Source: Thermoplasmata archaeon (GTDB lineage: Archaea; Thermoplasmatota; Thermoplasmata; Lutacidiplasmatales; UBA184). Taken from it: a stretch of DNA of 64,000 bases. Shown here piece after piece: positions 31,445 to 47,128 of this stretch. The stretch covers positions 169,202-233,201 of the forward strand of contig JAKASQ010000001.1 of NCBI GenBank assembly GCA_021828195.1. The letters are read 5' to 3'. Each line of letters starts with the position of its first letter. Position 1 is the first letter of the stretch. Under the pieces are notes generated by a model. It was not told where the DNA came from, did not search any database, and saw only the letters and a list, made by a program, of their open reading frames with translations. The position numbers and the translations under genes were made by a program.

Positions 31445-33300
31445 TTGGAGACCGGGGGCGATTTCACCTCAGAAACGGTGTAAGGGGTACACGGTCAATT
31501 AGGGACGAATCGAGCCAGTCCTAACGCCTTCACGACCGCGGTCTGCTCGCGGTCCAGCTTCTGGAGCACCACCTTCATCTTCTTCGAGCCCGGGCGCGCC
31601 ATCGCCACCACCTGGATCCGATCCAGTCGACTCGCCAACTGACCGATCGGGATCGTTCCCTTCGTGGCGACCTCCACCCGCCGCTGGATCCACCGGTAGA
31701 ACAGCAACCCCACCACGCACAGGAACGCGTGCACCCGGATCCGTTTGTCCAGCCGGTGGAAGATCGGCATCACCGGCATCAGCAGCACGTCCTTCAGGAC
31801 GTGGAACTCCTCCTCCATCCCCGAGCGGGCGAAGTAGGTCCGCACGATCTGTTCGTCACTCCAGTCGACCCGGTCCGTGAAGACCACCGTCTTCCCAAAC
31901 CCCTCCTTCAGCTCCGCCTCGTGCTTCGCCTCGACCCATCCCGTCACCGTGAACTTGGGCGGGTCGTGGTCGAGCGTCGCCCCGACCCGATATTTGAACA
32001 CCCCCCGCCACTTCGGCGGTAGGGCATCCTCGATCCGCTCCGTCACGCTCTGCACGGTCGAGCGACGACCGCGGTGGGGCTTCGACATCTTCTCTGCCAC
32101 GCTCTGGCACGTCGCGAGGAACCGCTCCTTCGCCCGCTCGTAGTCCCTCGCCTGCCGCTTCCGAGCGCTCTCGTTGAACGCCACCACCACGACCCCGTCC
32201 ACCCCGAGCACCCGCCGCTTCGACCGGAACCCGTGGATTGCCTCCTCCTGCTCGGTCGTGTAGAGCGTTCGGTATGCGGTCCGGGGTTTCGCGAGGAGGT
32301 CCCGCACCTGGTTCCGTTTCAGTGAGGAGAGGAAGTGCACCTGCGCCGCTCGGATCGACTCCAGCCCGTCCTCGGAGTTCACTCCCTTGTCGAAGACGAA
32401 GGTGAGCTCCTCCGCCACCGCGCCGAACTTCCTCAACTGCTCGACCATCGTCCCGACCACCTCCTGAAACAGCCGCGCGTCGTTCTCGTTCCCGGGGTAG
32501 ATTCGGTGGTAGACCGGCAGATGCTGCTCGGTCACCGCCATGGCGAGCCCGACCAGCTTCGCCTGAAGGTTCCCGTCCTTCGCGTGGCCCGGACGAGGCA
32601 GAAGTCGGTCGGGGTCGTCCTCGTCGGGCTGCTGCTCGGTCGAGAAGTTCGTGGGATCGAAGAAGACGAGCGAGGGGCGGTGTCCCTTGCGGACCAGCTC
32701 CTCGCCGAGACGGAGGGTGATCTGCTCCACCACGTCGTCGGTCAGGAGGTCCATGCGCTCGAGGTAGCGACGGCAGGAGAGGGAGGGGAGGTCGGGAACG
32801 AACCGGAAGAGGGACCGGTGCGCCCACTCTGCCATCCCGTTCTTCGAAACCGGCTCGTGAGCACGTCCGGCGATGAAGGCGAGGAGACTCAGCGCGGTGG
32901 CCCGACTGCCCGTGAGTTCCTCGACGACCCTCGAGAAACCGAGCTCGGCGTCCGCGGCCAGGAACGCCGCGCTGGTGCCGAAGGGATAGGGGAGGAACTC
33001 GATCCCTTCAGCGAAGGCGTCCGGGTTCGTCAGGCGCTGGACGAGTTCCTCCTGGGTGCCGAGGTACATCTCGGCGACATTGACGACCTTGCCGTCACGG
33101 CGAGCCTTCTGGACGAGGTAGACGTAGGTGTGGGGGCCGCGTCGGCGAAAGCGGAACTGCACGCGTGCGATAATACCCCCAACATAATGAACATGTCGGT
33201 CGTTCTGCCGATATCACACTGCCCCATTGTCTAATTGATCCTGATGCCCCCAACTCCCTTCTGAGGTGGATCGGGCCTTACCGCCAAAGTGAGGTCTGGG
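31445..33300 (-). mobile_element. IS element, IS1634/IS4-like, with imperfect terminal inverted repeats
   Basis: Left end ...GATTTCACCTCAGAAACGGTGTAAGGGGTACACGGTCAATTAGGG. Reverse complement of right end is ...GATCCACCTCAGAAGGGAGTTGGGGGCATCAGGATCAATTAGACAATGGGG. Encloses a single transposase gene. Confidence 0.6.
31495..33162 (-). CDS. IS1634/IS4-family DDE transposase
   Basis: 555 aa; FVFDKGVNSEDGL..., C-terminal HVLKDVLLMPVMPIFHRLDKRIRVHAFLCVVGLLFYRWIQRRV typical of IS1634-type transposases. Confidence 0.75.
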   Translation of the reverse strand: MQFRFRRRGPHTYVYLVQKARRDGKVVNVAEMYLGTQEELVQRLTNPDAFAEGIEFLPYPFGTSAAFLAADAELGFSRVVEELTGSRATALSLLAFIAGRAHEPVSKNGMAEWAHRSLFRFVPDLPSLSCRRYLERMDLLTDDVVEQITLRLGEELVRKGHRPSLVFFDPTNFSTEQQPDEDDPDRLLPRPGHAKDGNLQAKLVGLAMAVTEQHLPVYHRIYPGNENDARLFQEVVGTMVEQLRKFGAVAEELTFVFDKGVNSEDGLESIRAAQVHFLSSLKRNQVRDLLAKPRTAYRTLYTTEQEEAIHGFRSKRRVLGVDGVVVVAFNESARKRQARDYERAKERFLATCQSVAEKMSKPHRGRRSTVQSVTERIEDALPPKWRGVFKYRVGATLDHDPPKFTVTGWVEAKHEAELKEGFGKTVVFTDRVDWSDEQIVRTYFARSGMEEEFHVLKDVLLMPVMPIFHRLDKRIRVHAFLCVVGLLFYRWIQRRVEVATKGTIPIGQLASRLDRIQVVAMARPGSKKMKVVLQKLDREQTAVVKALGLARFVPN

Positions 33301-33316
33301 AGGCGGACTGAGTCGG

Positions 33317-33778
33317 GTGGGGGCCGTGGTCTTCGCCCTGGTCGTGTACCTGCTCTACAACCTGGTCTATGCCGGGGTCAGCTTCCCGGTGGGGCGACTC
33401 GCGGATCGACGGCCGGGGGTCGGGCTGGTCGCGGCCAGCTATCTCCTGTTCCTCCCGGTGGACGTTCTTCTCATTCTCGAAAGCGGGATCGCCGGAGCCG
33501 TCGCCCTGATGGTCGGGGCCGGCCTCCAGATAGCCCTCCTCGACGTGGTCGAATCTACTTGGATATCCCGAGCGGTGCCGCGGGAGTTGACGGCCACGGC
33601 GTTCGGGTGGTTCGGCGTTCTCCGGGGTCTCGGGACCCTCGTAGGCTCCATCCTTGTCGGGGCGATCTGGGAGTATGTCTCTGTCTCCCTGGCGTTCGCG
33701 GTCTCGGCCGTGTTCGTGGTCGCAGCGACCGCTATCCTGCTCCTGAAGGTGAGGAGCACTGACGCCTCACTCTCGTGA
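33317..33778 (+). pseudogene. C-terminal fragment of an MFS transporter abutting IS right end
   Basis: Six TM helices (GRLADRRPG loop motif) without an N-terminal half; starts 17 nt after IS terminus. Confidence 0.45.
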
Positions 33779-34028
33779 GTGCGGCTCCGCGGGAAGTCGC
33801 GGCTTGGCCGTTCAATTCGGCGTCCACCGAAATCCGGAATCGAGACAGGCGAACGAGTCCCTCCATTCCATCGTGTTTCCATGGCCGGACCCACCCGAAC
33901 CGTGACCTAAGCCCACCCCCGGAATCCGCCCGTGTTGGCGTCTCAGTGTCCGAGGGGGTGCGATCGAACGGCTGCTTTTCGACAGGGTTGACTCTTCGAG
34001 CCTCTTGAGACGGGCCCGGGCCGCTCCG

Positions 34029-34535
34029 TTACCTCGCCCGGCCGCCTGCGATGAGGAGACTCAGAAAGGCCAGGGTGAACGCGAGCAGGAAGCCCACCGA
34101 CATCCCGTACGAGAAGGCGTTGTTCTGCCCGGAGAATAGAAACTCCATGCCGCTGATTCCCGCGCCCAGTACGGCGGCAAACGTTCCCCCGGTCGTGGCG
34201 AGGAGTAGTGTGTTTCGGGAGAGCGCGGATGCCGCGAAGGTGAGAAGGGCGAGGACGCCCAGGACCATGCCGGTGAGCATGTGGGCCATTACGGCCCCCA
34301 TTCCCGGTAGGAACATCAGCTGCATCATTCCGTACATCCCAAGAATGGGCGACGGAAGCGTTACATACAGGTTGACGAACATTCCCAGCACGAATTGGAG
34401 GGCCAACAAACCGAGCTCCACCGACACTAGGGCGACGAGAATCGGGTGACGGGTCCTCGCGACTCTGGGGGCTTCGCGCGTCGTGACGCGGATCGAATCG
34501 ACAGCAGCCGGCGGCATGGAGGAGAGCCTCGTCAT
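34029..34535 (-). CDS. Hypothetical polytopic membrane protein (Met/Gly-rich TM helices)
   Basis: Hydrophobic segments throughout; divergent from first paralog gene; no family recognised. Confidence 0.35.
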   Translation of the reverse strand: MTRLSSMPPAAVDSIRVTTREAPRVARTRHPILVALVSVELGLLALQFVLGMFVNLYVTLPSPILGMYGMMQLMFLPGMGAVMAHMLTGMVLGVLALLTFAASALSRNTLLLATTGGTFAAVLGAGISGMEFLFSGQNNAFSYGMSVGFLLAFTLAFLSLLIAGGRAR

Positions 34536-34644
34536 GGGGGAACGCCACACAGGCCTTAGACTTAACTCGGGACAACCCCAGTCCGCAGGCGGGCAGGCTT
34601 CTTCTCCTCTGACGACCTGTCGCCACCGGCGGTCTGGCTCCGGA

Positions 34645-35391
34645 ATGTCAGGACTGTTCGTACCGGCCGAGTTCGCCGCGATGTTCATGGCCGTCGTGGC
34701 GGTCGTTCTCGGGGTACTGTTCGCGTTTCCGACGACGTTTCGGCTGCGGTCTCCGGGAAGGCGTGTGGCCTTCCTCCGCCTCCTGGTTGGGACGGTCCTA
34801 GCCGTGGATGCGACTCTCCAGTTTCTGCCCGGAGCTTCCCCACAGGTGGCTTACCTGCTCGTGGTCGGAGCCGGTCAGGAACAGCCTGCGCTCTCCGGGT
34901 GGTTCTCGTACTGGGCCAGCGTCATCGCCGGAGACCCCGGATTCTGGTGGTATGGAACGGGAATCCTCATGGCGTGCCTCGCCACCTGCCTGATACTCGG
35001 AGTCGCCCGCAGGCTGGCGTATGTCACGGGGTCCTTCTTCGGCCTGTTGCTTTGGGCGATCCCGAACGGGTTCGGCGGTCCCTACGTCGCCCCCCACACC
35101 GACGTCGGCGCCGGCCTGCTTTACGCCCTCCTGTTCCTGTTCCTCCTCCAGATGGATTCGGTATCGGGCCCGGTCCGTCTTGCCGGCGACGTCATGCTCG
35201 AACGCAGGTGGCCGAAATGGCGAGTGCTCGGCGGCAGGTCATTTCGCCCGCTGCCGCCGCCCGAATCCTACGAGCGACGAGTGACCCGTGATCTATCCGC
35301 GGAGGACTACGTGCCGTCCCCGGATCCTTGCTTGACCGAAGACGCACCCAAGACGCTCGGTCCGCCACCGCAACTCGGGTCGAACCGATGA
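34645..35391 (+). CDS. Paralogous 4-5 TM membrane protein, copy 1 (FGGPY family; possibly DoxX/DoxD-like)
   Basis: LRLLVG..W..DA.LKFLP, WWYGTG, LWAIPNGFGGPYVAPHTDVGAGLLYALLFL conserved blocks shared with six other ORFs in the window. Confidence 0.6.
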   Translation: MSGLFVPAEFAAMFMAVVAVVLGVLFAFPTTFRLRSPGRRVAFLRLLVGTVLAVDATLQFLPGASPQVAYLLVVGAGQEQPALSGWFSYWASVIAGDPGFWWYGTGILMACLATCLILGVARRLAYVTGSFFGLLLWAIPNGFGGPYVAPHTDVGAGLLYALLFLFLLQMDSVSGPVRLAGDVMLERRWPKWRVLGGRSFRPLPPPESYERRVTRDLSAEDYVPSPDPCLTEDAPKTLGPPPQLGSNR

Positions 35392-35508
35392 TCGAGTCGT
35401 CGCTTCCGCGGGAAGGTGTCGCCGTTGTGGAGCGAGGCACGAAGCCGTGCGCCCTGAAGAGTGCAGAGGGTTCCACACCCGCCGAACGGGAATGGGAGTG
35501 ACCGACGA

Positions 35509-36246
35509 ATGAACGATATCGCCCTGGCCTTCGAGGTGGCCGTCCTGCTGTTCGTCGGCGTGACGGTGGGAGTCGCTTTGGCGGCTGCCGTGGGAGGACG
35601 GCTCCGAACGATCCTCACCCCGTCGGTTCGCACGACGGTACTTCGAATCTTGTTCGGGGCGGTCTGGATCGCGGATGGCCTGCTCCGCTTCGTTCCCGGG
35701 ACCTACGCGCAGCTTTCGTACTGGCAGGTCGTCATGATCGAGGACGGTCAGCCGCCTTGGCTTCTTGGTTGGCTCACTTTCTGGGCGGGCATCATCGCGG
35801 GTACTCCGGCCTTGTGGTGGTACGGGTTTGGGCTGATCGAGCTCGCGCTCGGCTTCTGCCTGTTCACGGGGTTCCTGCGCCGACCCATCTACCTTGTCGG
35901 TCTGGCCGTCAGCATCCTCCTCTGGACGGTCCCCCAAGCTTTCGGAGGACCCTACGGTCCCGGAAGCACCGACATGGGCACGGGGATCCTCTATGCCGTA
36001 ATCTTCCTCGCCTTACTCCATCTCGACTCGATTTCGGGACCGCCCCGGTTCACGCTCGACACGACCGTGGGACGGCAGTGGCCGGCGTGGCAACGGCTGG
36101 TCCAAGCCCGGGTCCCGACGCAGCCAGCCGCTGCACCGCGGGAATCCAGCGTCAGCCTCGGACGGTCAGCTGACCGTACATCCCTGATTGAGCGTGGCCC
36201 GGCATCATACAGAGATACCAGAACGTCCCCGGGCCCGCGAAGCTGA
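35509..36246 (+). CDS. Paralogous 4-5 TM membrane protein, copy 2
   Basis: LWTVPQAFGGPYGPGSTDMGTGILYAVIFLALLHLDS; same block order. Confidence 0.6.
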   Translation: MNDIALAFEVAVLLFVGVTVGVALAAAVGGRLRTILTPSVRTTVLRILFGAVWIADGLLRFVPGTYAQLSYWQVVMIEDGQPPWLLGWLTFWAGIIAGTPALWWYGFGLIELALGFCLFTGFLRRPIYLVGLAVSILLWTVPQAFGGPYGPGSTDMGTGILYAVIFLALLHLDSISGPPRFTLDTTVGRQWPAWQRLVQARVPTQPAAAPRESSVSLGRSADRTSLIERGPASYRDTRTSPGPRS

Positions 36247-36874
36247 GCGTGGCAGCGGTAGTCTCGTAGACCGGGTTGGCACTCGTTGCCGTCATTCCAT
36301 CGACCATCATCGACCCCACGGAAAGCCAGCAGCCGCTCCCGTCACCCATTCCCATCATCCCTCCCCCGCTCATCATCGGCATGTACGGATATGGCGGCGG
36401 CTGGGTTGTCAGGGCGAAGTCGTGGGACTCGTTGTCCATGTTGATGAATTCGAACCGCACCGGCTCTCCCGACGGCACGGAGACCTGCGGGTTCACGAGT
36501 CCGTAGCTCAGGAAGTAGTTCCCGGAGTGAGGATACCACACGGGCGCCCCCTCGACGAGCAACGTCGCCCCGGGGGCAGTGACCGTGATCGAGTTCATCG
36601 CCGGAGTTTCGCTGACCCCGGGGGGCAATGAGTTTTCTTCGGTGAACGTCTGATTGTTGATCGTTGAGACCGTCGGGTCGTGCTGAGCGACCGAGGAGCA
36701 TCCCGCCGGAGCCAGTGCCGGCTTCTCGACGATCATATAGGCAAAGGCAATCCCCGCGAGACCGACGAGGATCGCCACCACCAGAACGACGACCACGGGC
36801 CCGAGAGGACGACCCGGAGGGTGCCGGCCGGGCGCCGACGAGTCGATCGTGACATTCTCCGTGCCGGCCGTCAT
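36152..36874 (-). CDS. Membrane-anchored cupredoxin (type-1 copper site) with Met-rich segment
   Basis: N-terminal TM anchor; ESHDFAL (His1) ... FWYLCMMPGHAQSGMYGQLTV = C-x2-P-G-H-x3-G-M type-1 Cu ligands; PPYPYMPMMSGGGMMGMGDGSGCW Met-rich motif. Confidence 0.65.
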   Translation of the reverse strand: MTAGTENVTIDSSAPGRHPPGRPLGPVVVVLVVAILVGLAGIAFAYMIVEKPALAPAGCSSVAQHDPTVSTINNQTFTEENSLPPGVSETPAMNSITVTAPGATLLVEGAPVWYPHSGNYFLSYGLVNPQVSVPSGEPVRFEFINMDNESHDFALTTQPPPYPYMPMMSGGGMMGMGDGSGCWLSVGSMMVDGMTATSANPVYETTAATLSFAGPGTFWYLCMMPGHAQSGMYGQLTVRG

Positions 36875-37515
36875 GGGTTCTGCTGGCCCGGAGGAGTTGC
36901 TGGGACCTCATCAGGTCTGCGAGAGACCCTCTCCGAACGGCGGAATACCGAAGTAGAGACCTCCGCCCAGCGGGCCCAGCCCGGCCAACTGCGCTCGATC
37001 CAGCCGTCGACGGTCCCCACCTTCGCGGATGGGTCGGCGTCGAGCACCAACAGGAACAGGAATGCGATCGCGTAAATGACACCCACTCCCACGTCAAAAG
37101 TGCCGACGTCGTAAGGGCCCCCGAACCCATTGGGAACCGCCCAAATGAACAAGCTCAGGCCCATCCCCCCGAGGTAGGCTGTCTTTCTCAAGAGTCCCAG
37201 GGTGAGCGAAACGCACAACGCGAGCTCGAGAAAAGTGACGACCCCCACGTCCATTGCCGCGTATTGCTGGGATTGGACGACCCAGAAGGCATACCAGCCG
37301 GAGAGCCAGGAAGGCTGGCCGATGCTCGCGGCGAGAACGCTCTCGGAGAACCAGAACGGAGTCTGCGGGAAGAACGCGAGCGCGGCATCGATTCCCCAGA
37401 CGAATCCGAAGATCATACGGGCTGACCGACGAACCGCTCCGCGATGGCGGAGGATCCACCCCTCACCATGCTCCGCGACGCCGATCATCGCAGGATGTCT
37501 CCCTCGGGATTGCAA
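36871..37515 (-). CDS. Paralogous membrane protein, copy 3 (lacks first TM helix), co-oriented and overlapping with cupredoxin gene
   Basis: IFGFVWGIDAALAFFPQ...WAVPNGFGGPYDVGTFDVGVGVIYAIAFLFLL; 4-nt overlap with downstream cupredoxin. Confidence 0.55.
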   Translation of the reverse strand: MQSRGRHPAMIGVAEHGEGWILRHRGAVRRSARMIFGFVWGIDAALAFFPQTPFWFSESVLAASIGQPSWLSGWYAFWVVQSQQYAAMDVGVVTFLELALCVSLTLGLLRKTAYLGGMGLSLFIWAVPNGFGGPYDVGTFDVGVGVIYAIAFLFLLVLDADPSAKVGTVDGWIERSWPGWARWAEVSTSVFRRSERVSRRPDEVPATPPGQQNP

Positions 37516-37716
37516 CCACTCATCCCGCTACTTGTGGGGGCCGTATGAACCGCGGGGGCGGCGCCCGTCGTGTCCTCTGTTGGCACTTGTCGATGCGGCC
37601 GTCCAAGAGCCCGACCGTTCGGTGGGAGAATCCGTCCGTCGACTACTGGTGACCCAACACCTCGTTCCCGTCCGTTGCCCGCTCGCAGTCAATCTTTATA
37701 CCAGCCGTCCGGGTAG

Positions 37717-38577
37717 GTGCGACGCATGACCGACTGGGAGCGCGTCGAACAGCTTCGCGCCGACGGGGTCAGTTGGGACAAGGTAGCCAGTGATCGGAAG
37801 GCCGGTTTCCACCCCCCTCCGGGCGCCGACGCCGGCCGCGCCCTGCGGACTCTCTATTTCCAGCGTCGCTCCCGGAGCAGCCGTTCGGGGCCCCAAACTC
37901 CAGGAGGTTCCGAGCGCCGGGGAGACCGGGCCGGCAGAGGCGGACCGAAGCGATTGCGCTCGATCATAATCGGCGGTTCCGCCGTCACCGTGCTGATACT
38001 GGTGATCTACCTCATCCTCACGTCGGGTGTTCTCTTCGGGGGTCCGCCGAAGCCAGGAACCAACCCGGGTCCGGGGGCAGCTGGGACTCTTGCGGAGTTC
38101 AACTACCTCAGCCAACAATCCACCGACGCGTGTGTGTGGACGGGAGTCAACCTCGGCGATGAAACGTCGTACGTCAACTGGATCAACGGATTGGCGGATA
38201 ACACCTACATCCAAGGCTCGTGTTGTAGCCCGATGGATTTCACCCCCGACTATTCGTCCCAGATTCCCGGCCTCACGAGTTACGCCTCGATCTCCCTCAT
38301 CCCACCGGATCCCTACAATGTGGTCGCGCACACGGCGAAAGCCGATGTCGCCCATGCCGGTGACGCGCTCACCTCGAGCCAGCAATCCGTCTTCAACACG
38401 GCGGCGAGCAACACGAACGACAACGGCTGGTGCTGCTGCCAGTGCTGGGCCTACTACGCTCATGAGGGCCTGGCGAAGGCCCTGATCGTGCAGTACGGCT
38501 ACACTGCCCAGCAGGTGGACACGGTCATCAACCTCGAAGACTGCTGCGGCGGGCCCGGCCCGATGAACATGCCGTAA
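37717..38577 (+). CDS. TM-anchored Cys-rich protein of unknown function (CC, CCCxC, CC motifs)
   Basis: Basic cytoplasmic N-term, one TM helix (IIIGGSAVTVLILVIYLILTSGVLF), then extracytoplasmic Pro/Gly/Asn-rich domain containing GSCCSPMDF, NGWCCCQCWAYYAHEG, LEDCCGGPGPMNMP. Confidence 0.5.
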   Translation: MRRMTDWERVEQLRADGVSWDKVASDRKAGFHPPPGADAGRALRTLYFQRRSRSSRSGPQTPGGSERRGDRAGRGGPKRLRSIIIGGSAVTVLILVIYLILTSGVLFGGPPKPGTNPGPGAAGTLAEFNYLSQQSTDACVWTGVNLGDETSYVNWINGLADNTYIQGSCCSPMDFTPDYSSQIPGLTSYASISLIPPDPYNVVAHTAKADVAHAGDALTSSQQSVFNTAASNTNDNGWCCCQCWAYYAHEGLAKALIVQYGYTAQQVDTVINLEDCCGGPGPMNMP

Positions 38578-38622
38578 CCTCCCGGGGTCGCCCTGCCCCT
38601 CCTCGGAAGGTCGCAAGGAACC

Positions 38623-39213
38623 GTGTCGACCGCGGGTGTTCGGGACCGAACCCTGCCGACGTGGTTCTTCCACAATCCGCTTCGACGGTGGTTCAAGAAG
38701 CCGGGCCGCCTGATTGACTTCTGCCCGCCAAGGTCGGGGGACGTGGTCGCGGATCTTGGTGCCGGAGGCGGGTTTTTCCTGGCAGAGCTAAGTCGAAGAG
38801 TCGGGTCAGCGGGACGGATCTACGCCGTCGATATCGACGACGGCGCCCTGTCGTTGGCGCAGCGGGTCGCCACCACCTTGGAGGTGACGGACCGGGTGGA
38901 GTTCATCCATTCCTCCGCAGCTTCGGTGCCATCCATCCCTTCCGGCGGTGTGGATTACATCCTTTCGAACGGGCTCCTTTGTTGCCTGATCGACAAGGAG
39001 CGAGCGATGGAGGAGATGTGGCGAATCCTCAAGCCGGGTGGCCGTGCCTTGGTGACCTTCGTAACGATTGGTCCGCGCTTTACCGCCCGCGGTAGGGCCC
39101 TGCGGACATCGGAGCGGAGATTCCGCGAGTTGCTTTCGAGACGTTCGTGGGAGGTAATCCCAGGCAAAGCCAAGCCGTTCTCGCGGCGGTTCATCTTGAG
39201 GAAGTTCGGTTGA
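38623..39213 (+). CDS. Class I SAM-dependent methyltransferase
   Basis: VVADLGAGGGFF motif I, IYAVDIDD post-I, DYILSNGLLCCL motif II, LKPGGRALV motif III. Confidence 0.65.
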   Translation: MSTAGVRDRTLPTWFFHNPLRRWFKKPGRLIDFCPPRSGDVVADLGAGGGFFLAELSRRVGSAGRIYAVDIDDGALSLAQRVATTLEVTDRVEFIHSSAASVPSIPSGGVDYILSNGLLCCLIDKERAMEEMWRILKPGGRALVTFVTIGPRFTARGRALRTSERRFRELLSRRSWEVIPGKAKPFSRRFILRKFG

Positions 39214-39626
39214 CCCCCGTTGATAAGAAACCGGATGGACAAGGTCCGGCGCCGTCGCCATCGAACTCGGTCTCGGACCGCGGCTGCGTCAATCGGCAGT
39301 TCATCCGCAGTCGACTACTCTACAGGGAGGGCCGCCGACACTCCGGAGCGTACCGCTCAGCATCCGCAGGATCTCGAAGTAGGGGAGCGATGTGAGCGGT
39401 TCGCGCCGACCACGAGGGCCTCAACTCTGGGCTGACGGACCCGGTGAGGGCGTGCGCGATCCGCTGCACTCTTTCCCGGCGCCAATCTCCTGAGCGCCGT
39501 CGACCTGCGTGCCGTTCCGACGTGGTCAGCGAATGGGTTCGAGGCGGCCGCGGATTCCCGCCTCCAGAGTCGATTCTCGTGGACCGCGACGTCGAAGGAT
39601 GCGAACGCGACTGGAGGTCGGACCCT

Positions 39627-40217
39627 TCATTGCCGAGGCGCCGCCAGCCAGCGCGACAACCTTGAGAATCTCGCGCGTCCGGTCGCCCAGATCCAGTGGT
39701 CGACGGCCACGTACTTCCCAGCTCCTCCGGTGAAGAGAATCAGATAGATCAACAGGTAGAGCGGATGCGGTCCCACGTCGGTACCACCGGGAATCTGAAA
39801 CGTGCTCAGGAATTGGGTCGCGAGGAAGATGACAGAGGCTAGCCCGCCCACAATGCACGCCAAACGGGTGGTGACCCCGAGAACAAAGGCGATGGCGAGG
39901 TAGGCCGTGAGGAGGGCGGTCATCCATGCAAACGCGGTCGCATGGGCCGCAACAAAATTCGCGACACTGGGGCCTCCAAGACTCGTAGGTGCAAAGGAGA
40001 GCACAGTCTCCCGGAATGTGGGGAAGAACTGATTGGCCGGATCCACGATGAAGATCATGTTCAGGACCCAGACGAGGCCTACCCCCACGCGAAGAAGGTC
40101 GATGGACATCCCCTTTGGGTCGGATTGCCACAAGTCACGCAGGTGTCCGTACCAGGTCCGCCCGGACGGCCCGACGGAAGGGGATTCGGACTTGTTCTCG
40201 TCCCGACGGTTCACCAT
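39627..40217 (-). CDS. Divergent paralog of the FGGPY membrane family, copy 4
   Basis: TFQIPGGTDVGPHPLYLLIYLILF corresponds to FGGPY..TDxGxGxLYAxxFL block; downstream of second cupredoxin-like gene on same strand. Confidence 0.45.
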   Translation of the reverse strand: MVNRRDENKSESPSVGPSGRTWYGHLRDLWQSDPKGMSIDLLRVGVGLVWVLNMIFIVDPANQFFPTFRETVLSFAPTSLGGPSVANFVAAHATAFAWMTALLTAYLAIAFVLGVTTRLACIVGGLASVIFLATQFLSTFQIPGGTDVGPHPLYLLIYLILFTGGAGKYVAVDHWIWATGRARFSRLSRWLAAPRQ

Positions 40218-40360
40218 TCCACCGCTGGACGACTTGACAAGCGAAAACCCCTTGGGTCGACGTCCGACCAGCGTAGCGCTCTCTGTTCAACTACCGGTGA
40301 GTGAGGGCCGGGTGCTCGCGACCGAGTCTCGGCGCACCTTCGTGTCGCTTCGGTACAAAG

Positions 40361-40930
40361 CTACGAGACGGTCATCGTGCCGCTCATGTACCCGGGAGTG
40401 CTCATTGGTCCCCCCGTGAATCCCCCCGGGCCGGTTCCGCATGGCGACATGCAGAACCACGAGAACGTCCCGGCGTTGGTGACGTCGACTGTGAACGACA
40501 CGACGCTCTGCCCCGGACTCAGAACGTTCAAGCCGAACGCTGGAATCGAGAACGTGTGCGCGACATTGGAGATCGGGACCGTGCTGTACGGCGTGCCGTT
40601 GATCGTCTCCACTCCGTTAACGGTCCCCTTTACGGCACACGGGCACCCCGTCCACTCCGCGACGGCGTCGTGATCGGTGATCGTAAAGGCGACCTTTCCC
40701 TGGGGGACGTCAAAGCTCGTGGGGGAATACTGGGGCCAGCCGGTCGTGGTGTTGAACGAGACCGTGAGGTTGACGTACGACGTCTGACCCGAGGTCGACG
40801 TGGTCGTCGCCGGACCTGCGGCACTGGGAAACGTCACCAGCAAGACACCCGCCGAAACCACGACGGCAATTGCCAACACGCCTGCGACGGCGTTGAAGTA
40901 ATCCTGATCCTTCATCGTTCTTCCCTCCAC
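40361..40930 (-). CDS. Secreted/anchored cupredoxin-like protein with atypical Cys motif
   Basis: Signal/TM anchor, Thr/Ser-rich linker (GPATTTSTSGQTS), beta-rich domain with AHTFSIPAFG and FSWFCMSPCGTGPGGFTGGPMSTPGYMSGTM (C-x3-C-G as in CuA, but no His-x2-Met directly after). Confidence 0.45.
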   Translation of the reverse strand: MEGRTMKDQDYFNAVAGVLAIAVVVSAGVLLVTFPSAAGPATTTSTSGQTSYVNLTVSFNTTTGWPQYSPTSFDVPQGKVAFTITDHDAVAEWTGCPCAVKGTVNGVETINGTPYSTVPISNVAHTFSIPAFGLNVLSPGQSVVSFTVDVTNAGTFSWFCMSPCGTGPGGFTGGPMSTPGYMSGTMTVS

Positions 40931-41487
40931 TTACCGGATTCCCTGAGGCGGTCCTTCGCGGAACAAGAGCGACTGTACGGGCACGTATTCTATGCCCGCG
41001 TACGGGGATAACCTCTCCCACTCGCATTCTCGGGGTTGAGAACGATGGGTCCCGAACCGGTCGACGGGACGGACCAGGACCGGTTGACCGCCATCCCCCG
41101 GGAAGGGGTCAAACCGCTGGCGAAGATGGTCCGGGTGACGTCCCTCCATTCCAGGCCCTGTGTCTCGACCTTCACCGGGCTCCCTCGTTCGGCAGTTCCC
41201 GCCGGCAAAGGCGCCCTCCATCGCAGTCGAGAGCTCGAATGTCTCCGGGACCACTAAAGGCGGGTGAGCGACCTGGGCACTCCGGGTTGGCTCCCAACCC
41301 AGGACTTTCGACGCACGTCCACGGTTCACTCTCTGACGAGAAACGGACCCGGAGGTCGCGCCGTAAGTGCTGGTCTCGTTCCCATAGCGTCAGTCTCTGT
41401 GAGCGGATCGTTGTTGAAGAGGCGCCCCGTTGGTCAGGGGGGCCCGGGGACGGGTGGTGGGGACGCCCGTTCGGAGTAGCCCGCAAG

Positions 41488-42384
41488 TCAGTGCGGCTGA
41501 CCTCCGCAAGTGCAATCGGGAGCTTCCACCTGGATCGTCACATGTCGTATCCGAAAACGCTGGCGGACGATGTCCTGGGCGACGTGAGTCACGTGATCGT
41601 CTTTGGGTTCCGCCTCGAGCACTAGGTGGACGCTCATCGCCTCCGAGCCGGAAGTGAGCGTCCAGACGTGGAGGTCGTGGACCGCCCGCACGCCCGGGAG
41701 GTCGCTCAACGAGTTTTCGACCTCTGCCGGGTTGATGTGCGTCGGCGTCCCCTCGAGCAAGATAGTGAGCGTGTCCCGGGAAAGCCGGAAGGCGAAGACC
41801 CCAATCAGCGCCGCGACGAAGAGGGTCGCCACAGGGTCCGCAATCTCAATCCCTCCAAATAGGATCAGGGCCCCGGCGACCACTGCGCTGAGTGAACCGA
41901 GCACGTCAGAGAGGATGTGCAGGTACGCCGCGCGAATGTTGATGTTCAATCGGCCTCGGACGCGGAGGACGCGGGCGATGGCGAGATTGGCGACCAGGGA
42001 GAGCGCGCCCACGACCAGCACGACCGGACCATGAACGGGCGCGGGTGTTCGGAAGCGCAGGTATCCCTCGACGACGAAGAGGGCGGCCAAACCCCAGAGG
42101 ATGAGGGCATTCGCAAACGCGGCGACTACCTCGCCCCGGCCGTGGCCGAACGAGTGGGCCGAGTCGGCCGGTCGGCTCGCCCAAGTGACAGCAAGGAGCG
42201 CGAGCCCTAGGGCGGCCAGGTCGGTGAGGTAGTGACCGGCATCCGCCAATAGGACGAGGGAGTTGGCCGCGAACCCACCGATGAGCTCTATCACCATGAT
42301 TACCGACCCGGCGGCGACTACCCAGAGGAGTTGCCGCCGATTTTCCCGGGCGAAGGCGCGAAGGTGCTCGGATTCGTTGCCCAT
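41488..42384 (-). CDS. Cation diffusion facilitator (CDF) family metal efflux transporter
   Basis: LLADAGHYLTDL, HSFGHGR, HILSDVLGS motifs; C-terminal cytoplasmic domain ending in CTCGGQPH; start at MGNESEHLR. Confidence 0.85.
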   Translation of the reverse strand: MGNESEHLRAFARENRRQLLWVVAAGSVIMVIELIGGFAANSLVLLADAGHYLTDLAALGLALLAVTWASRPADSAHSFGHGRGEVVAAFANALILWGLAALFVVEGYLRFRTPAPVHGPVVLVVGALSLVANLAIARVLRVRGRLNINIRAAYLHILSDVLGSLSAVVAGALILFGGIEIADPVATLFVAALIGVFAFRLSRDTLTILLEGTPTHINPAEVENSLSDLPGVRAVHDLHVWTLTSGSEAMSVHLVLEAEPKDDHVTHVAQDIVRQRFRIRHVTIQVEAPDCTCGGQPH

Positions 42385-42720
42385 GGAATGCTGGTCGCTC
42401 CCAGTGCCGCCGAACCGCTTTAACCGAGACGGTCCGGGAGAGATCCCCTCCTCCGTGTTCAGCTTCGACCGCGATCTCTCGGTGTCATTCCTAGGCTTCC
42501 TCTCCCCCCAAGCCCACCGTTGATTCTCGGGGCCGGTCCCACGAGGGATGGGGTACAGGTCTACAGGGGTCCGCGCCGGCCCCCCAGTCAAGAGCATTGG
42601 TGAGGCCGGGGGATGGCCTCGTGCCGTCGGCACGGGAGGCGCCCGAGGAGGGGCCGTCGGAGTCCATGCGCGACTCTCTTCAGCCTCGTGGCCCTCTCCC
42701 AAGGCGGGGTTAACCGAGGG

Positions 42721-43437
42721 ATGACAGTTCTCTTCCTGCCGGCCGAGGTCCTGGCAGTTTTTGTTGCAATCTCAGCCGCTGGACTCGGCGTACTCCTCAC
42801 TGCCCCCGAGACCTTCCGCCTCCGCTCTCCGGGAGGTCGAGTTGCCTTGCTTCGAGTGCTCGTCGGCGCCCTTTGGGCCACCGATGCCACGCTCAAGTTC
42901 CTACCGAGAGCCCCTCCCGTACTCGCATATTGGCTTGTGGTCGGCGCGGGCCAGGATCAACCGGGGCTCTCTTGGTGGTTTTCATACTGGGCTGGCGCAG
43001 TTGGTGCGAATCCTGCCCTCTGGTGGTACGGCACCGGTGCGCTCGAGGCGCTCTTGGCGACTGCCCTGCTGCTCGGATTCGCCCGCCGCCTTGCATATGT
43101 TGCCGGATTCCTTCTCAGCCTCTCCCTATGGGCAATCCCAGAGGGATTTGGCGGCCCCTACCTTTCGAGCACGACCGATGTCGGCGCGGGCCTGCTTTAC
43201 GCGCTTCTGTTCTTGATGCTCCTTCAGATGGATTCCGTCTCGGGTCCGGCACGGTACGCGGTCGACGCAGCCTTGGGGCGCCGCTGGCCCAGTTGGCGCT
43301 TCATCGGAGGCGGTTCCTCCCGTGTCGTTTCGGCCCACGGCAGCGAAAGCCGCGAGCAGGCGTCCCCTCCGCTCGTGGCGGATCCGATCATCGAGGGTCG
43401 CCGGGGAGAGGTTCCCAGAGCGGGTGCAGACCGATGA
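42721..43437 (+). CDS. Paralogous membrane protein, copy 5
   Basis: LWAIPEGFGGPYLSSTTDVGAGLLYALLFLMLLQMDS; most similar to copy 1 (same block order and near-identical C-terminal motif). Confidence 0.6.
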   Translation: MTVLFLPAEVLAVFVAISAAGLGVLLTAPETFRLRSPGGRVALLRVLVGALWATDATLKFLPRAPPVLAYWLVVGAGQDQPGLSWWFSYWAGAVGANPALWWYGTGALEALLATALLLGFARRLAYVAGFLLSLSLWAIPEGFGGPYLSSTTDVGAGLLYALLFLMLLQMDSVSGPARYAVDAALGRRWPSWRFIGGGSSRVVSAHGSESREQASPPLVADPIIEGRRGEVPRAGADR

Positions 43438-43551
43438 CCCATACTCCTCGCCCTTCGGCGATCCACGTAGCCGGCCTCCCAGCTCCCGGCCCGCCCGTGC
43501 CGCTGGGGACCTCTTCGCGCCGCCGGCAAGCCAGGTTCGGGTGACAAGAAC

Positions 43552-44232
43552 ATGGGCGTAGTCGTTCTTGCGTTCGATGTTTTCCTCCTCCTGACGATGG
43601 GCACGATAGTGTCGATAGCCCTGGTGGCGGGCTTCGAGAAGGAACTGAAGACTATCTTCTCCCCGTCGGGCCGGACGGGCTTCCTACGGATTCTCTTCGG
43701 TGGGGTCTGGCTGGTTGACGGCCTGCTCAGGTTCCAAGCGGGAGCGTCCCCGCAGCTCTCCTATTGGATGGTCGTCATGGCCGGCCAGGGACAGCCCGCA
43801 TGGCTCTCGGGGTGGTATGCCTACTGGACAGGCTTCATTGGCGGCGCCCCGACATTCTGGTGGTACGGGGTCGGCTCCATCGAACTCGTGATCGCGGTCT
43901 GTCTTATCGCGGGATTCCTCCGCAAGCCGGTGTATCTCGTCGGCCTGTGTCTCAGCCTCTTCCTCTGGACGGTGCCCGAAGGTTTTGGTGGACCCTACGC
44001 TCCCGGGAGCACCGACATGGGGGCTGGAATCCTGTACGCCGTCGTGTTTCTCGCCTTGCTGCATCTCGACTCGGTTTCGAGTCCCCCCCGGTTCGCTCTC
44101 GACACGGTGATCGCGCGGCGGTGGCCGACGCGGAGACGGCACGTCCCGGCCGAAGTCTCGATTTCGGCGGTCGTCGCACAGGAGGATTCCGTACTCGCCG
44201 TCGGCTCGTCGGAAACCGGTACGTACCGGTGA
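43552..44232 (+). CDS. Paralogous membrane protein, copy 6
   Basis: LWTVPEGFGGPYAPGSTDMGAGILYAVVFLALLHLDS; most similar to copy 2. Confidence 0.6.
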   Translation: MGVVVLAFDVFLLLTMGTIVSIALVAGFEKELKTIFSPSGRTGFLRILFGGVWLVDGLLRFQAGASPQLSYWMVVMAGQGQPAWLSGWYAYWTGFIGGAPTFWWYGVGSIELVIAVCLIAGFLRKPVYLVGLCLSLFLWTVPEGFGGPYAPGSTDMGAGILYAVVFLALLHLDSVSSPPRFALDTVIARRWPTRRRHVPAEVSISAVVAQEDSVLAVGSSETGTYR

Positions 44233-44331
44233 GCCCTCCGGGCGGAGCATCCAAACCCGCCTAGGGACCCCTTGCTACCTCTGACCGCGGGTAGCCCTGG
44301 CTCAGCCACGGTTCCAGCCGGTCCCATCCCC

Positions 44332-44850
44332 TCAGCCGCCTCCCATATCCCCGTCCGCAGTCGAGCGGCGTTGCGGAACTACTTCGGCCCACCGGTCCCA
44401 GCCGGGTATCCTCCGCTCGATCCGGGCATCCAGAGTTCCCCGGCTCGAATCGTGGCTGACCTCCAGGGCCAGGAGGAGTAGGAACGCGAGGGCGTAGACG
44501 AGCCCGGTTCCGATATCGAAGCTACCGGGGACGTACGGACCGCCAAACCCCTCCGGCACGGCCCAGATGAGGAGACTGAGGGCGATGCCGCCGATGTAGG
44601 CGAGCTTCCTCAGGAACCCGGTGAACAGCGCGAACGCCAAGGCGAACTCGAGGCCGGTGACGAGGGAGACATCGAGTGCCGCGCTCGCGCTCGTCTGGTG
44701 GACCCAGAAGGCGAACCAGCTACCGAGCTAGGCCGGCTGGCCGATGCTCGCTGCCAGGACCCTCTCGGAGAACCAGAAGGGGGTCTGGGGCAGGAACTTG
44801 AGCGCCGCATCGAGCCCCCAAACGAGTCCGAAGAGTTTCCGGAGGGAGGA
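44332..44850 (-). pseudogene. Paralogous membrane protein, copy 7, disrupted by in-frame TAG (minus-strand codon at 44728-44730) and lacking a start
   Basis: By-eye translation KLFGLVWGLDAALKFLPQTPFWFSERVLAASIGQPA*LGSWFAFWV...WAVPEGFGGPYVPGSFDIGTGLVYALAFLLLL; stop replaces the conserved Trp (SIGQPSWLSGWY in copy 3). Confidence 0.55.
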
Positions 44851-45387
44851 TCGTATTTGGCCAAGGTTCCGTTCGGCCCATTCATCCTCGGATACCAAGG
44901 GACCGCTCCGACCGCGGAGACGGGGCGGGCCGCTTATACGAGCGATGTCCGAATCGGATCGCGACAGCGGTGCTTTACTGTTGACCGCCGAGAGATCGGC
45001 CGCCTTCAGGCCGTGGTGACGTGGGTCGGAGCGACCGGAGTATCAACACGACGAGAAAGGCGATGAGAAGCCCGCCGATTGCCACACCAATGAGCATGTA
45101 CACCCACATGAGGGCCGACATGGCGGGACCGGTCATGCCGAAACCCATGGCCCCACCCGCGAGGACATGTCGCACATCGCGAGCGAGATGGCCGTGGCAA
45201 TAGAAGCCTCTTGCGGAACTCACGACCAAGCTTGAGACCGGGGCCGGCCCGCGGGACTCGGGAACACGGCGATTGCCCATGGCGGAATGCAGGGCGCGCT
45301 CTTCCTTGCCTAGACTATCTCCAACCCGGGACTTGGCGAACCAGAGTGGCCTCTGCCAGCCAGCGACCCGAACACGGGGATCGAGTT

Positions 45388-45465
45388 ACATGCTCATCGC
45401 GCCGGGTCCACCGCAGCAGTCTTCAAGGACCAAGACCGCAGCCACCTGCTGGGAATCATACCCCT
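45388..45465 (-). repeat. Inverted ~78-bp copy of the 3' end of the Cys-rich gene (38521-38600), encoding ...KGYDSQQVAAVLVLEDCCGGPGAMSM* with no upstream gene body
   Basis: Direct by-eye comparison: GTTAC.CATG.TCATCG.GCCGGG.CC.CCGCAGCAGTCTTC.AGG...GACCG...CCACCTGCTGGG shared. Upstream in-frame TGA ~40 codons before stop. Confidence 0.5.
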
Positions 45466-45786
45466 TTCCGGTTCCGACCCTTGCCGGTTCGGGTAACGGA
45501 GCCTCCCTTCAGGAAGTACCAATACGAACCGCGAGTTCTTAGCGGGGGTCCCCGGTCGGTCGCCGAACGGAAATGGGGGTGAGCCGGGAAGTCCTCTTAC
45601 AATGTCCCATCCCCCGCGATTCTTGCCGTCAGGTCCCCCGGCTTCTTCGAGGTAGGGCATGAACGATCTGCTGCCCGCCCTGACCTGGCTTCACGTCTTC
45701 TCCGTGATTCCCAACGATGGCAGAGCGGGGTTTGAGAACGAGGCGTAGCTCACGACTCGTGTGATCCCGGTCTCGGATCAAACGGC

Positions 45787-46140
45787 TCAGCTGACGACTC
45801 GGATTCCTTCGCGGATGGTTTGAATGAGCTTTTCCTGCTCGGCCTTGGGCGTGTTCTCTAGAGCCTCAAGCATGTCCTCGAGAATCAGCCCGGTCGCCTT
45901 CTCGAGCGCCCCCCGAACGGCCATCAACTGGAGAAGGACGTCGGCGTACGGCTGATTCTCATCCAGCATACGAATCACGGCATCGAGATGTCCACTCGCG
46001 CGAGACATCCTACCCCGCACAGCACCTTGCAAGTGATGCTCCATACGGCCATCCCCATGCCGGGAGGGGGATTTACCCTTTTTTCCTGTCGCCCTCCTGC
46101 GCAGAAGAAGGTCAAGTTCGTTCCCTTGTCCTTCCGTCAA
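45787..46140 (-). CDS. CsoR/RcnR (DUF156)-family regulator-like protein lacking the canonical Cys/His metal ligands
   Basis: HLQGAVRGRMSRASGHLDAVIRMLDEN.PYADVLLQLMAVRGALEKATGLILEDML resembles CsoR helical core, but Ala replaces the conserved Cys (YCID position) and no HxxxC/H at C-terminus; real start may be M33 (46044). Confidence 0.45.
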   Translation of the reverse strand: MTEGQGNELDLLLRRRATGKKGKSPSRHGDGRMEHHLQGAVRGRMSRASGHLDAVIRMLDENQPYADVLLQLMAVRGALEKATGLILEDMLEALENTPKAEQEKLIQTIREGIRVVS

Positions 46141-46220
46141 TGCCTCGGCCGCATCCTGGCCCTCGGCACGATGGGTTTCCTCGGAAGTAGTTTATAGTTC
46201 ATTCGAATCCCCTGGGGGGG

Positions 46221-47117
46221 ATGGTTGCCGTGGCGGCAGTGGGAGGCCGCGGATCCCAGTCACAGCCGGAGCCGCGTTCCAGGACTCCCACGTTAGGGAC
46301 CACTGGAGCGCTCTCGGCAGAAACTCTTGAGATCAACCGGGCCGCGATCGAGCTCGAGTGTACCCGTCTCTCGTACTCGTACCCGGCGATCAAGGGCTCA
46401 CCCGCGAAACCTGTCTTCCACGGCATCGACATCAAAGTGTGCAAGAATGAACTCGTGGCCATCGTCGGGCCCACGGGCGCAGGGAAGTCCACGATCCTCC
46501 GTTGCCTCGGGGGATTCGTTCACCCGAACGAGGGGCACGTCTACCTGCACGGACAAGAAGTCCTCCGCCCTTCGTCGAAGATCGTCCTCATCCACCAGTC
46601 AATCGCCACGTTCCCGTGGATGACGGCCTTGGACAATGTGAAGCTCGCTCTGACCTGCAAGAAGGTGGATGAGAAAGAAGCGGAACGAACGGCGGCCGCG
46701 ATGCTCGACCTCGTCGGACTAGGCGCCAACAAGTCGAGTTACCCGAAGGAACTAAGCGGCGGGATGCGGCAGAAGGTGGCGGTCGCGAGAGCGCTCGCCG
46801 CGTCCCCATCGATCCTGTTGATGGACGAGCCGTTCGTCCATCTGGACGAGATCGCGGCGGAGGAGCTGCGTCGGGAGATTCACTCCCTGGTCTTCAACCC
46901 CGAAAGCACGCTGGATGCGGTCGTTCTCGTCTCCCACAACCTGACCGAGGTGGTCGAGCTCGCGGACCGCGTCTACGTGATGAATGGTTCGCCCGCAACC
47001 GTGATCGACGAGTTCGGCATCGACCTCCCGCGTCCGCGAGCCTTGCGGGACTCCTCCTTCCTTCTCAGCGTTGACCACCTGATGGGCGACCTGAACACCC
47101 CGAAAACGAAACCGTAG
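46221..47117 (+). CDS. ABC transporter ATP-binding protein (NitT/TauT-like importer family)
   Basis: GPTGAGKSTIL Walker A, LSGGMRQKVAVARAL signature, LLMDEPF Walker B, H-loop VSHN. Confidence 0.85.
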   Translation: MVAVAAVGGRGSQSQPEPRSRTPTLGTTGALSAETLEINRAAIELECTRLSYSYPAIKGSPAKPVFHGIDIKVCKNELVAIVGPTGAGKSTILRCLGGFVHPNEGHVYLHGQEVLRPSSKIVLIHQSIATFPWMTALDNVKLALTCKKVDEKEAERTAAAMLDLVGLGANKSSYPKELSGGMRQKVAVARALAASPSILLMDEPFVHLDEIAAEELRREIHSLVFNPESTLDAVVLVSHNLTEVVELADRVYVMNGSPATVIDEFGIDLPRPRALRDSSFLLSVDHLMGDLNTPKTKP

Positions 47118-47128
47118 GGACCACCGCC

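Follow-up and report, generated by a model that had tools for sequence, protein, structure and literature searches.

The window analysed here, a 64,000-nucleotide stretch of the genome of a Thermoplasmata archaeon (GenBank assembly GCA_021828195.1, contig JAKASQ010000001.1, positions 169,202 to 233,201), encodes a membrane-anchored, rusticyanin-like cupredoxin with a conserved Met-rich loop between the ligands of its type-1 copper site. We favour, with a probability of about 0.55, the reading that the product of this gene belongs to the rusticyanin lineage of cupredoxins and handles copper outside the cytoplasm, in copper homeostasis or resistance and not as a respiratory carrier. Several observations lead to this reading. 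The Met loop is conserved and matches the position of the functional loop of the copper-resistance cupredoxin CopI, and relatives of the gene lie near genes for Cu(I) export, copper chaperones and regulators. The only family member found in a respiratory cluster has a Met-poor loop. The gene itself belongs to a lower-GC, transposase-bordered region that includes a CDF exporter. Finally, a Cuniculiplasma homologue is located on a metal island of a host that does not oxidise iron, and a Sulfobacillus rusticyanin gene is located in a metal-resistance region. An earlier note, made from the letters of the sequence, had proposed a copper-resistance or chaperone role over pure electron transfer. The CopI-equivalent loop and the copper genes near relatives speak for that proposal, but the window itself contains no copper-specific gene.

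The gene and its parts, with sub-coordinates verified by translation of the open reading frame (ORF), are the following.

36152..36874, minus strand: the Met-rich cupredoxin gene, an ATG-to-stop ORF of 240 amino acids coding for a rusticyanin-like type-1 cupredoxin, membrane-anchored.
36731..36805, minus strand: N-terminal transmembrane anchor, residues 24-48, a helix in the AlphaFold2 (AF2) model; translation LGPVVVVLVVAILVGLAGIAFAYMI.
36416..36433, minus strand: first copper ligand strand NESHDF (H151), from translation and alignment.
36293..36397, minus strand: Met-rich loop PPYPYMPMMSGGGMMGMGDGSGCWLSVGSMMVDGM, residues 160-194, consisting of a conserved PPYxYMxMM core and a Gly/Met insertion.
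36179..36211, minus strand: C-terminal ligand loop CMMPGHAQSGM (C222, H227, M232), from translation, with these positions 100% conserved.

The three strings quoted in the earlier note, ESHDFAL, FWYLCMMPGHAQSGMYG and PPYPYMPMMSGGGMMGMGDGSGCW, are all found in the translated ORF 36152..36874. We identified 44 homologues, with 28-95% identity, in assemblies of Thermoplasmata and Nitrososphaerota; the nearest relatives are encoded in uncultured Thermoplasmata genomes and the more distant ones in Nitrososphaerota. A profile search against 1.8 billion cluster representatives (50% identity) gave 616 matches, 198 of these at E <= 1e-10. Because of this conservation among homologues, the ORF is a real gene. 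By the positive-inside rule, the Arg/His-rich N-terminus would lie inside the cell and the cupredoxin domain outside.

The assignment of the protein to type-1 cupredoxins with the canonical ligand set, made in the earlier note, is borne out by the alignments. H151, C222, H227 and M232 align to H85, C138, H143 and M148 of rusticyanin and are conserved in 99-100% of 136 family representatives (H151 in 99%; C222, H227 and M232 in 100%). Among the NCBIfam models, rusticyanin (TIGR03095) ranks first, with 82.9 bits, an E value of 2.6e-23 and coverage of 148/148 model positions. The best solved structures by sequence are likewise all rusticyanins (PDB, E 1e-11). The AF2 model has a mean predicted local distance difference test score (pLDDT) of 77.8, with most domain blocks at 84-95. 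A Foldseek search with this model retrieved rusticyanin 2cak at E 6e-12 with a target-normalised TM-score of 0.81. The model also matched auracyanin and the cupredoxin domains of nitrite reductase, and its predicted architecture is the Greek-key beta-sandwich of cupredoxins. Asp152 occupies the position of rusticyanin Ser86, a neighbour of the first His ligand to which importance for stability in acid and for redox potential has been ascribed; the top PDB match is the S86D mutant 1gy1. Judged by sequence and model, the protein is a rusticyanin-like type-1 cupredoxin, yet it is no rusticyanin equivalog, because its score falls below the equivalog cut-off of 146.7 bits.

The protein shares with rusticyanin of Acidithiobacillus ferrooxidans (1RCY/2CAK; TIGR03095) the ligand spacing H...C-x4-H-x4-M, the N-terminal extension, the PPY motif, one Met and an acidophile origin. 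In contrast to soluble rusticyanin, it is membrane-anchored; it has Asp in place of Ser86 and a Met-rich loop with a Gly/Met insertion that contains nine Met against one in rusticyanin. Its neighbourhood lacks rus-operon or oxidase genes (cyc2, cyc1, cox or equivalents), whereas its relatives are linked to copper-export genes. The earlier note had suggested alignment to CopI, sulfocyanin and halocyanin. This comparison was informative for the position of the Met loop, which is as in a CopI-like protein, but the closest family turned out to be rusticyanin. Membership in the CopI family is ruled out by hidden Markov model scores (NF051440, 24 bits against a cut-off of 280; NF047895, no match, cut-off 200), and the same holds for sulfocyanin (SoxE), with TIGR03094 at 21.8 bits against a cut-off of 168.4. 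The protein matches the Pfam SoxE model at 28.7 bits (gathering score 21), a weak, general domain match, and the sulfocyanin motif FNFNGTS (cited in PMC3750248) is absent from the protein. The halocyanin model (TIGR03102) gave no match at E <= 0.1. Sulfocyanins and halocyanins are, like the protein described here, archaeal membrane-attached type-1 cupredoxins; they differ in being members of respiratory complexes.

The enrichment for Met noticed in the earlier note is pronounced. Met accounts for 16 of the 240 residues overall and for 9 of the 30 residues at positions 165-194, set against 1.9% for 14 ORFs nearby. A run of 27 residues with 8 Met has a binomial tail probability of 2.5e-8, which rises to ~5e-6 once all window positions are corrected for. 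The enrichment is found in DNA with a GC content of 64-70%. The two parts of the loop have different distributions. The PPYxYMxMM motif begins 9 residues after the His ligand and is common to the wider rusticyanin-like family; among the 136 representatives, P160 is conserved in 97%, P161 in 98%, Y162 in 78%, M165 in 63%, M167 in 73% and M168 in 57%. Rusticyanin retains PPY and one core Met (M99, equivalent to M165); a literature search for the role of Met99 returned nothing relevant. The core motif is a family trait and could be partly structural. The Gly/Met insertion (residues 173-180) is present in ~20% of the representatives and is variable in length, with Met at positions 174 and 175 in nearly all of the insertion-bearing members. 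Part of the Met motif pointed out in the earlier note is therefore shared by the whole family, with one of its Met kept in rusticyanin.

Within the clade of the query (78-95% identity), Met 165, 167, 168, 173, 174, 176, 189 and 190 are all unchanged, and the flanking residues vary. In a set of 19 sequences that reaches down to 41% identity, M167 and M168 never vary, and M173, M174 and M189 are each conserved in 90% or more. The earlier note had named a linker with no conserved Met positions as the finding that would speak against it, and the alignment shows the opposite. The AF2 confidence falls to ~50 at residues 169-180, which suggests that this segment of the loop is flexible.

Two further features of the loop and its surroundings were observed. 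Cys59 (about 36698-36700) and Cys182 (about 36329-36331) co-occur in 13/13 members of the query clade, and the pair occurs in 0/157 other sequences. Cys59 is located just past the anchor, 10 residues beyond the helix, in the lipobox-like sequence LAPAGC, and Cys182 lies inside the Met loop. The co-occurrence suggests either a disulfide that would tie down the Met loop or lipid attachment at Cys59, the disulfide being at least as likely. In six Nitrososphaerota relatives (P0015, P0018, P0020, P0026, P0030 and P0034), the linker between the anchor and the domain contains extra GGMMGG or GYGGMM repeats, a second Met-rich region in a position other than that of the loop.

The working model for the Met loop, with Cu(I) first captured and then oxidised, is CopI of Rubrivivax gelatinosus, Pseudomonas and Cupriavidus. 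In R. gelatinosus CopI, an internal His/Met-rich region is conserved and has been reported to be crucial for copper resistance; according to the proposal made there, Cu(I) binds to this region first and is then oxidised at the cupredoxin centre (PMC13308877). In our alignment, the His/Met-rich stretch HEFVMDTHEAVMEHKEVMAKFPEMEHDD of a CopI-like protein falls in the same loop as the Met loop of the query, directly after the first His ligand. This CopI-like protein is encoded on a Mesorhizobium plasmid next to genes for a copper oxidase and TolC, and scores 113.6 bits with NF051440 and 78.7 bits with NF047895, both below the cut-off. CopI and the query share a single cupredoxin domain, a His-Cys-His-Met site and a Met-containing segment, probably flexible in the query, after the first His ligand. 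They differ in other respects. The loop of the query consists of Met and Gly, without His, and shows no sequence similarity to the CopI segment. Its N-terminus is a membrane anchor without a His-rich stretch, whereas CopI has an N-terminal His-rich Cu(II) site. The query is archaeal, with DoxX proteins and a Met-loop membrane protein as partners, whereas the partners of CopI are periplasmic proteins of the CopA (multicopper oxidase) and CopB type. CopI is encoded among copper-resistance genes, and relatives of the query lie near CopA, CopZ and TRASH genes, unlike the query in its own window. A second parallel is CueO, in which a type-1 copper centre is adjoined by a Met-rich segment that is disordered; the Met-rich domain of CueO has been reported to recruit Cu(I) for oxidation (PMC11494321). 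CueO, however, passes electrons through a trinuclear cluster to O2, whereas the query has one cupredoxin domain with no evident O2-reducing site.

Copper genes recur around relatives of the query. A scan of metagenome contigs yielded 79 loci that represent 59 distinct loop variants (hereafter lineages). P1B ATPases are encoded in 12/59 lineages, always within 5 kb of the cupredoxin gene, and any copper marker in 15/59, or in 11 of the 32 lineages whose contig is 8 kb or longer. Further relatives, derived from genomes, also have genes for Cu(I) P-type ATPases, CopZ/HMA chaperones or TRASH/YHS regulators within this distance. We estimate roughly that, in a genome of 2-3 Mb with one or two such genes, a neighbour this close would arise by chance in ~1% of cases. 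All complete ATPases contain a CPC or CPH motif and have YHS or HMA N-termini; 6 of the 10 examined possess the full set of CPC, YN(x4)P and MxxSS, the Cu(I) signature of P1B-1 pumps.

The gene arrangements differ between loci. In L009 and L011, a YHS-type P1B ATPase (CopA) followed by a DoxX paralogue, along with a TRASH regulator, is encoded 2.7 kb upstream of the cupredoxin. In L017 (63% identical to the query), the cupredoxin is flanked by a protein with zf_CopZ, BFD and HMA domains and by a COX2-like cupredoxin. The L020 locus (47% identical) has the order HMA, DUF7343 regulator, cupredoxin, YHS, DUF6114, CopA, HMA. In L102, the cupredoxin gene is located between a TRASH regulator with CopA on one side and HMA with a MerA-like gene on the other. 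A respiratory cluster was found in 1/59 lineages, namely L092 (L092:9746-16326), where a SoxM-like set of genes encodes COX2-like, oxidase subunit I, Rieske and cytochrome b-like proteins. The loop of L092 is Met-poor, with a single Met, and we consider this locus an internal example of a respiratory branch of the family. The Met content of the loop may thus separate copper-handling from respiratory members, with four Met-poor variants sampled. Six marker-free loci (L042, L059, L071, L076, L080 and L087) are surrounded by unrelated genes and contain zero respiratory genes; three of them have a DUF7343 winged-helix regulator of their own, and one has a CopY/BlaI-family regulator together with a DsbD-like protein. 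An own regulator of the DUF7343 or CopY family is usual outside the copper loci and would be expected of an inducible stress gene.

The neighbourhood of the cupredoxin in the window includes the following features.

31495..33162, minus strand: DDE transposase gene, marking the onset of a lower-GC stretch.
34029..34517, minus strand: Met-loop membrane protein with four helices, an invariant M-x-G-M-M-Q-x-M loop and an H-M pair (H79-M80) in helix 2.
34483..35391, plus strand: DoxX-like paralogue A, by synteny.
35461..36246, plus strand: DoxX-like paralogue B, convergent with the cupredoxin gene, with a 3' overlap of 95 nucleotides.
36871..37515, minus strand: DoxX-family membrane protein (C-type paralogue), true start probably at 37488; synteny in L001-L007.
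34483..37515 and 42613..44886: two DoxX modules (A, B and C types), the first with the cupredoxin and the second without.
38623..39213, plus strand: class-I S-adenosylmethionine methyltransferase (Pfam Methyltransf_31, E 1e-18), a neighbour of the cupredoxin in two Thermoplasmata clades.
39627..40217: a further DoxX-like paralogue.
40364..40930, minus strand: second membrane-anchored cupredoxin, COX2/CuA-like, with H...C-x3-C-G and no second His (FSWFCMSPCGTGPGGFTGGPM).
41488..42702, minus strand: CDF-family cation efflux transporter (Pfam Cation_efflux, E 1.6e-40; NCBIfam CDF, 257 bits).
43552..44232: DoxX paralogue (Pfam DoxX, E 1e-3).
44332..44886: frameshifted C-type DoxX copy of the second module.
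45787..46140, minus strand: CsoR/RcnR/FrmR-family repressor (Pfam E 1.5e-14) with zero Cys.

The stop codon of the C-type DoxX gene overlaps the start codon of the cupredoxin gene (ATGA, 36871-36874), an arrangement indicative of translational coupling and co-transcription. The window copy of this DoxX protein gave no direct Pfam match; its identity was established through homologues at 40-48% identity that match Pfam PF07681 and are named 'DoxX family' by NCBI. A metagenomic gene call, P0010, has DoxX fused to the cupredoxin. Altogether, six intact DoxX-like paralogues and one frameshifted copy are encoded between 34.4 and 44.9 kb, and 6 of the 7 make up the two three-gene modules. The close relatives L001-L007 conserve the order DoxX-C, cupredoxin, DoxX-B, DoxX-A, Met-loop protein. 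At the other end of the cupredoxin gene, its 3' end and that of the convergent DoxX-B gene overlap by 95 nucleotides (36152..36246), and the same overlap is seen in the gene calls of L001.

The Met-loop membrane protein adjoins the cupredoxin and the methyltransferase in two divergent Thermoplasmata clades, as traced by tblastn synteny. The second of these, L008-L014 and L031, is a low-GC clade with 38-43% identity to the query in which the order is DUF302, methyltransferase-like gene, cupredoxin, methyltransferase, Met-loop protein and another membrane protein. L009 has a CDF gene in addition, and L031 has a weak CDF match. The Met-loop protein had no match in searches of family libraries, and its AF2 model is weak (pLDDT 55), so that only the helix positions were used. 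The COX2-like cupredoxin, matched by CyoA in PDB (E 6e-3) and by CoxB TIGR02866 (E 5e-4), is kept near the Met-rich cupredoxin in L001, L002 and L017; it might be part of the same system. In L001 and L002, the COX2-like gene follows that of a Rieske protein (two ORFs in L001), which is absent from the window.

The CDF exporter, with counterparts near the relatives in L001 and L009, marks the region as metal-handling. The GC content is 63-65% in 32000..48000 against 68-70% outside, and the low-GC stretch starts after the DDE transposase gene, which is consistent with horizontal acquisition. A comparable island is known from a cultured member of the Thermoplasmata. In Cuniculiplasma divulgatum S5, a 'rusticyanin/sulfocyanin homolog' is encoded on a strain-specific mobile island together with metal ATPases, metallochaperones, COX2-family cupredoxins, multipass membrane proteins and heavy-metal reductases (PMC5155288). 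Both this island (island 1 of S5, or 'G-plasma') and the window contain a Thermoplasmata blue-copper gene, and the make-up of the island is similar to that of the window and of L009-L013 and L031. The rusticyanin-like genes of 'A-plasma' and 'G-plasma', Thermoplasmata of acid mine drainage, have been interpreted as iron-oxidation genes (PMC3750248); cultured C. divulgatum, which is G-plasma, shows no iron oxidation (PMC5155288). The Cuniculiplasma papers (PMC5155288, PMC3750248) give no function for the protein and no account of a Met-rich loop. In Sulfobacillus, a rusticyanin gene is located in a metal-resistance region with CDF, CopZ, CopA and CsoR (PMC6803676). A role as determinants of copper resistance has been proposed for rusticyanin and AcoP, according to the account given in PMC5328820 of Navarro 2016. 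DoxX genes are also found in the bufferin clusters, which are copper-stress operons, and DoxX was dispensable there (PMC11626156). In the literature library that we searched, there was no paper on archaeal Met-rich cupredoxins in cop loci, on the loop, or assigning a function to the group.

How such a protein might handle copper can be outlined by analogy. The cupredoxin would sit on the outside of the membrane of its acidophilic Thermoplasmata host, fixed by its anchor, and its flexible Met/Gly loop would capture Cu(I) through thioether sulfurs, as envisaged for CopI and the Met-rich domain of CueO. The Cu(I) could be expelled by CopA or come from acid mine water. Met thioethers should still bind Cu(I) at an acid pH at which His is protonated, which would fit the His-free loop. 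The loop would then pass Cu(I) to the type-1 centre, where it would be oxidised to Cu(II), the less toxic form; failing this, the protein would buffer copper or hand it on. Possible partners of the reduced centre are the DoxX protein, the Met-loop membrane protein or the nearby COX2-like cupredoxin. We consider the specific sequence of capture followed by oxidation tentative, and less probable than a role in copper handling as such.

The copper-handling reading has to be weighed against several observations that do not fit it readily. The best match by sequence and by fold is rusticyanin, an electron carrier, and the DoxX partner, the COX2-like cupredoxin and the Rieske protein of L001 and L002 are all redox-type proteins. 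CopA, CopZ and TRASH genes are all missing from the 64-kb window, where tblastn with two archaeal CopA proteins detected nothing. The CsoR-family repressor has to be discounted as a copper sensor: because it contains no Cys, its effector is not bound by the usual Cys ligands. About two-thirds of the long-contig lineages have no copper marker. The core Mets could be structural, since rusticyanin keeps PPY and M99, and the Cuniculiplasma protein (CSP5_0076) may belong to a clade other than the Met-rich one.

A rival explanation is that the protein is a respiratory blue-copper carrier, an analogue of rusticyanin or sulfocyanin that passes electrons from Fe(II), or from a membrane module that oxidises quinol (DoxX, Rieske), to a terminal oxidase, with the loop tuning hydrophobicity, redox potential or docking. 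The match to rusticyanin by sequence and fold and the acid-mine setting, where homologues were read as iron-oxidation genes (PMC3750248), would be natural under this explanation. Archaeal carriers would be expected to have a membrane anchor, and quinone-linked proteins are among the members of the DoxX family, to which the co-transcribed protein belongs. A COX2-like cupredoxin is encoded in the window and Rieske proteins in L001 and L002, and one family member, L092, lies inside a SoxM-like oxidase cluster. However, the surroundings of the gene in the window lack genes for haem-copper oxidase subunit I, cytochrome b and a Rieske protein. The link to an oxidase is seen in 1/59 lineages, the one with a Met-poor loop, against 12/59 for the link to a Cu(I) ATPase. 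Asp152 replaces Ser86, the score is below the rusticyanin equivalog cut-off, and the Cuniculiplasma homologue belongs to a metal island in a host without iron oxidation. We regard a respiratory carrier as unlikely, although it is the explanation to which we give most weight after copper handling. A non-catalytic copper chaperone or buffer, in which the loop and perhaps the type-1 site sequester Cu(I) or Cu(II), or pass copper on to cuproproteins (the COX2-like protein, for instance) without any redox turnover, seems somewhat less likely still. Such a role agrees with the proposal that rusticyanin and AcoP trap excess copper, with the modular copper buffer described in work on CopI peptides, and with the CopZ- and HMA-type chaperones that adjoin relatives; the Met-loop membrane protein and the COX2-like cupredoxin nearby might be a hand-off partner or metallation target. 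Yet the complete type-1 redox site, invariant across the family, is more than a chaperone needs, and stoichiometric sequestration by a membrane-bound protein would offer little capacity. The data do not discriminate between this role and the one that we favour.

The Met segment might also have no role related to copper, with the core being a structural motif of the fold, the Gly/Met run a tolerated low-complexity insertion, and the protein performing some other redox job. The core motif is indeed family-wide and partly kept in rusticyanin. The insertion is variable in length and sequence, is present in only ~20% of the representatives and coincides with low AF2 confidence, and Nitrososphaerota homologues have low-complexity linkers of Gly, Met and Tyr on the N-terminal side of the domain as well. 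Against this, the Mets of the insertion are invariant within the clade, where flanking residues vary, a residue with a single codon is extremely enriched at 68% GC, the linkage to copper genes is specific to the Met-rich members sampled, and the position of the loop matches that of the functional loop of CopI. We consider this the least probable of these explanations.

Extending the copper-handling reading, one might picture a membrane-bound cuprous oxidase of archaea, so far undescribed, that is assembled from the DoxX protein, the Met-rich cupredoxin, the Met-loop protein and perhaps the COX2-like cupredoxin. The Met loops would take up the Cu(I) that CopA expels, the type-1 centre would oxidise it, and the electrons would enter the membrane, at the quinone pool or an oxidase. 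Such a complex would do the job of CueO and CopI without a multicopper oxidase and might link copper detoxification to respiration at low pH. This is a speculative and, in our estimate, improbable scheme.

Part of the background to these observations has been described before, namely cupredoxin-based copper resistance (CopI), the proposed copper role of rusticyanin and, descriptively, the island co-location in Cuniculiplasma. The new elements are the recognition of a large Met-rich branch of the archaeal rusticyanin-like family, the topological equivalence of its Met loop with the functional region of CopI, the conservation of DoxX paralogues and a Met-loop membrane protein as its partners, and the suggestion that the number of loop Mets tells copper-handling members from respiratory ones. 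Iron oxidation in acidophilic archaea is widely inferred from metagenomic matches to 'rusticyanin' or 'sulfocyanin'. Members of the Met-rich branch, in Thermoplasmata and Nitrososphaerota, should not be so read; this branch more often accompanies copper-export or chaperone genes and dedicated regulators. It represents a candidate archaeal counterpart of CopI and CueO, with a Met-only chemistry suited to acid pH, in a domain of life where extracytoplasmic copper detoxification is otherwise poorly defined.

Some minor features of the locus complete the picture. Several stand-alone homologues of DoxX-C (~188 amino acids) are named 'nitrite reductase (NO-forming)' by JGI, a label that may have been carried over from DoxX-cupredoxin fusion proteins. 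The best NCBIfam match of the methyltransferase is ArsM-like, at 74 bits and below the cut-off; the candidates of a quinone or arsenite methyltransferase were rejected, all matches being far below cut-off. One more gene lies between the DoxX-cupredoxin pair and the methyltransferase.

37717..38577, plus strand: Cys-rich membrane-anchored protein, probable start at 37726 or 37954, with CC, WCCCQCW and CC motifs and no family match.

This gene is divergent from the DoxX-cupredoxin pair, and a TATA-like TTTATA is found ~27 nucleotides before the ATG at 37726.

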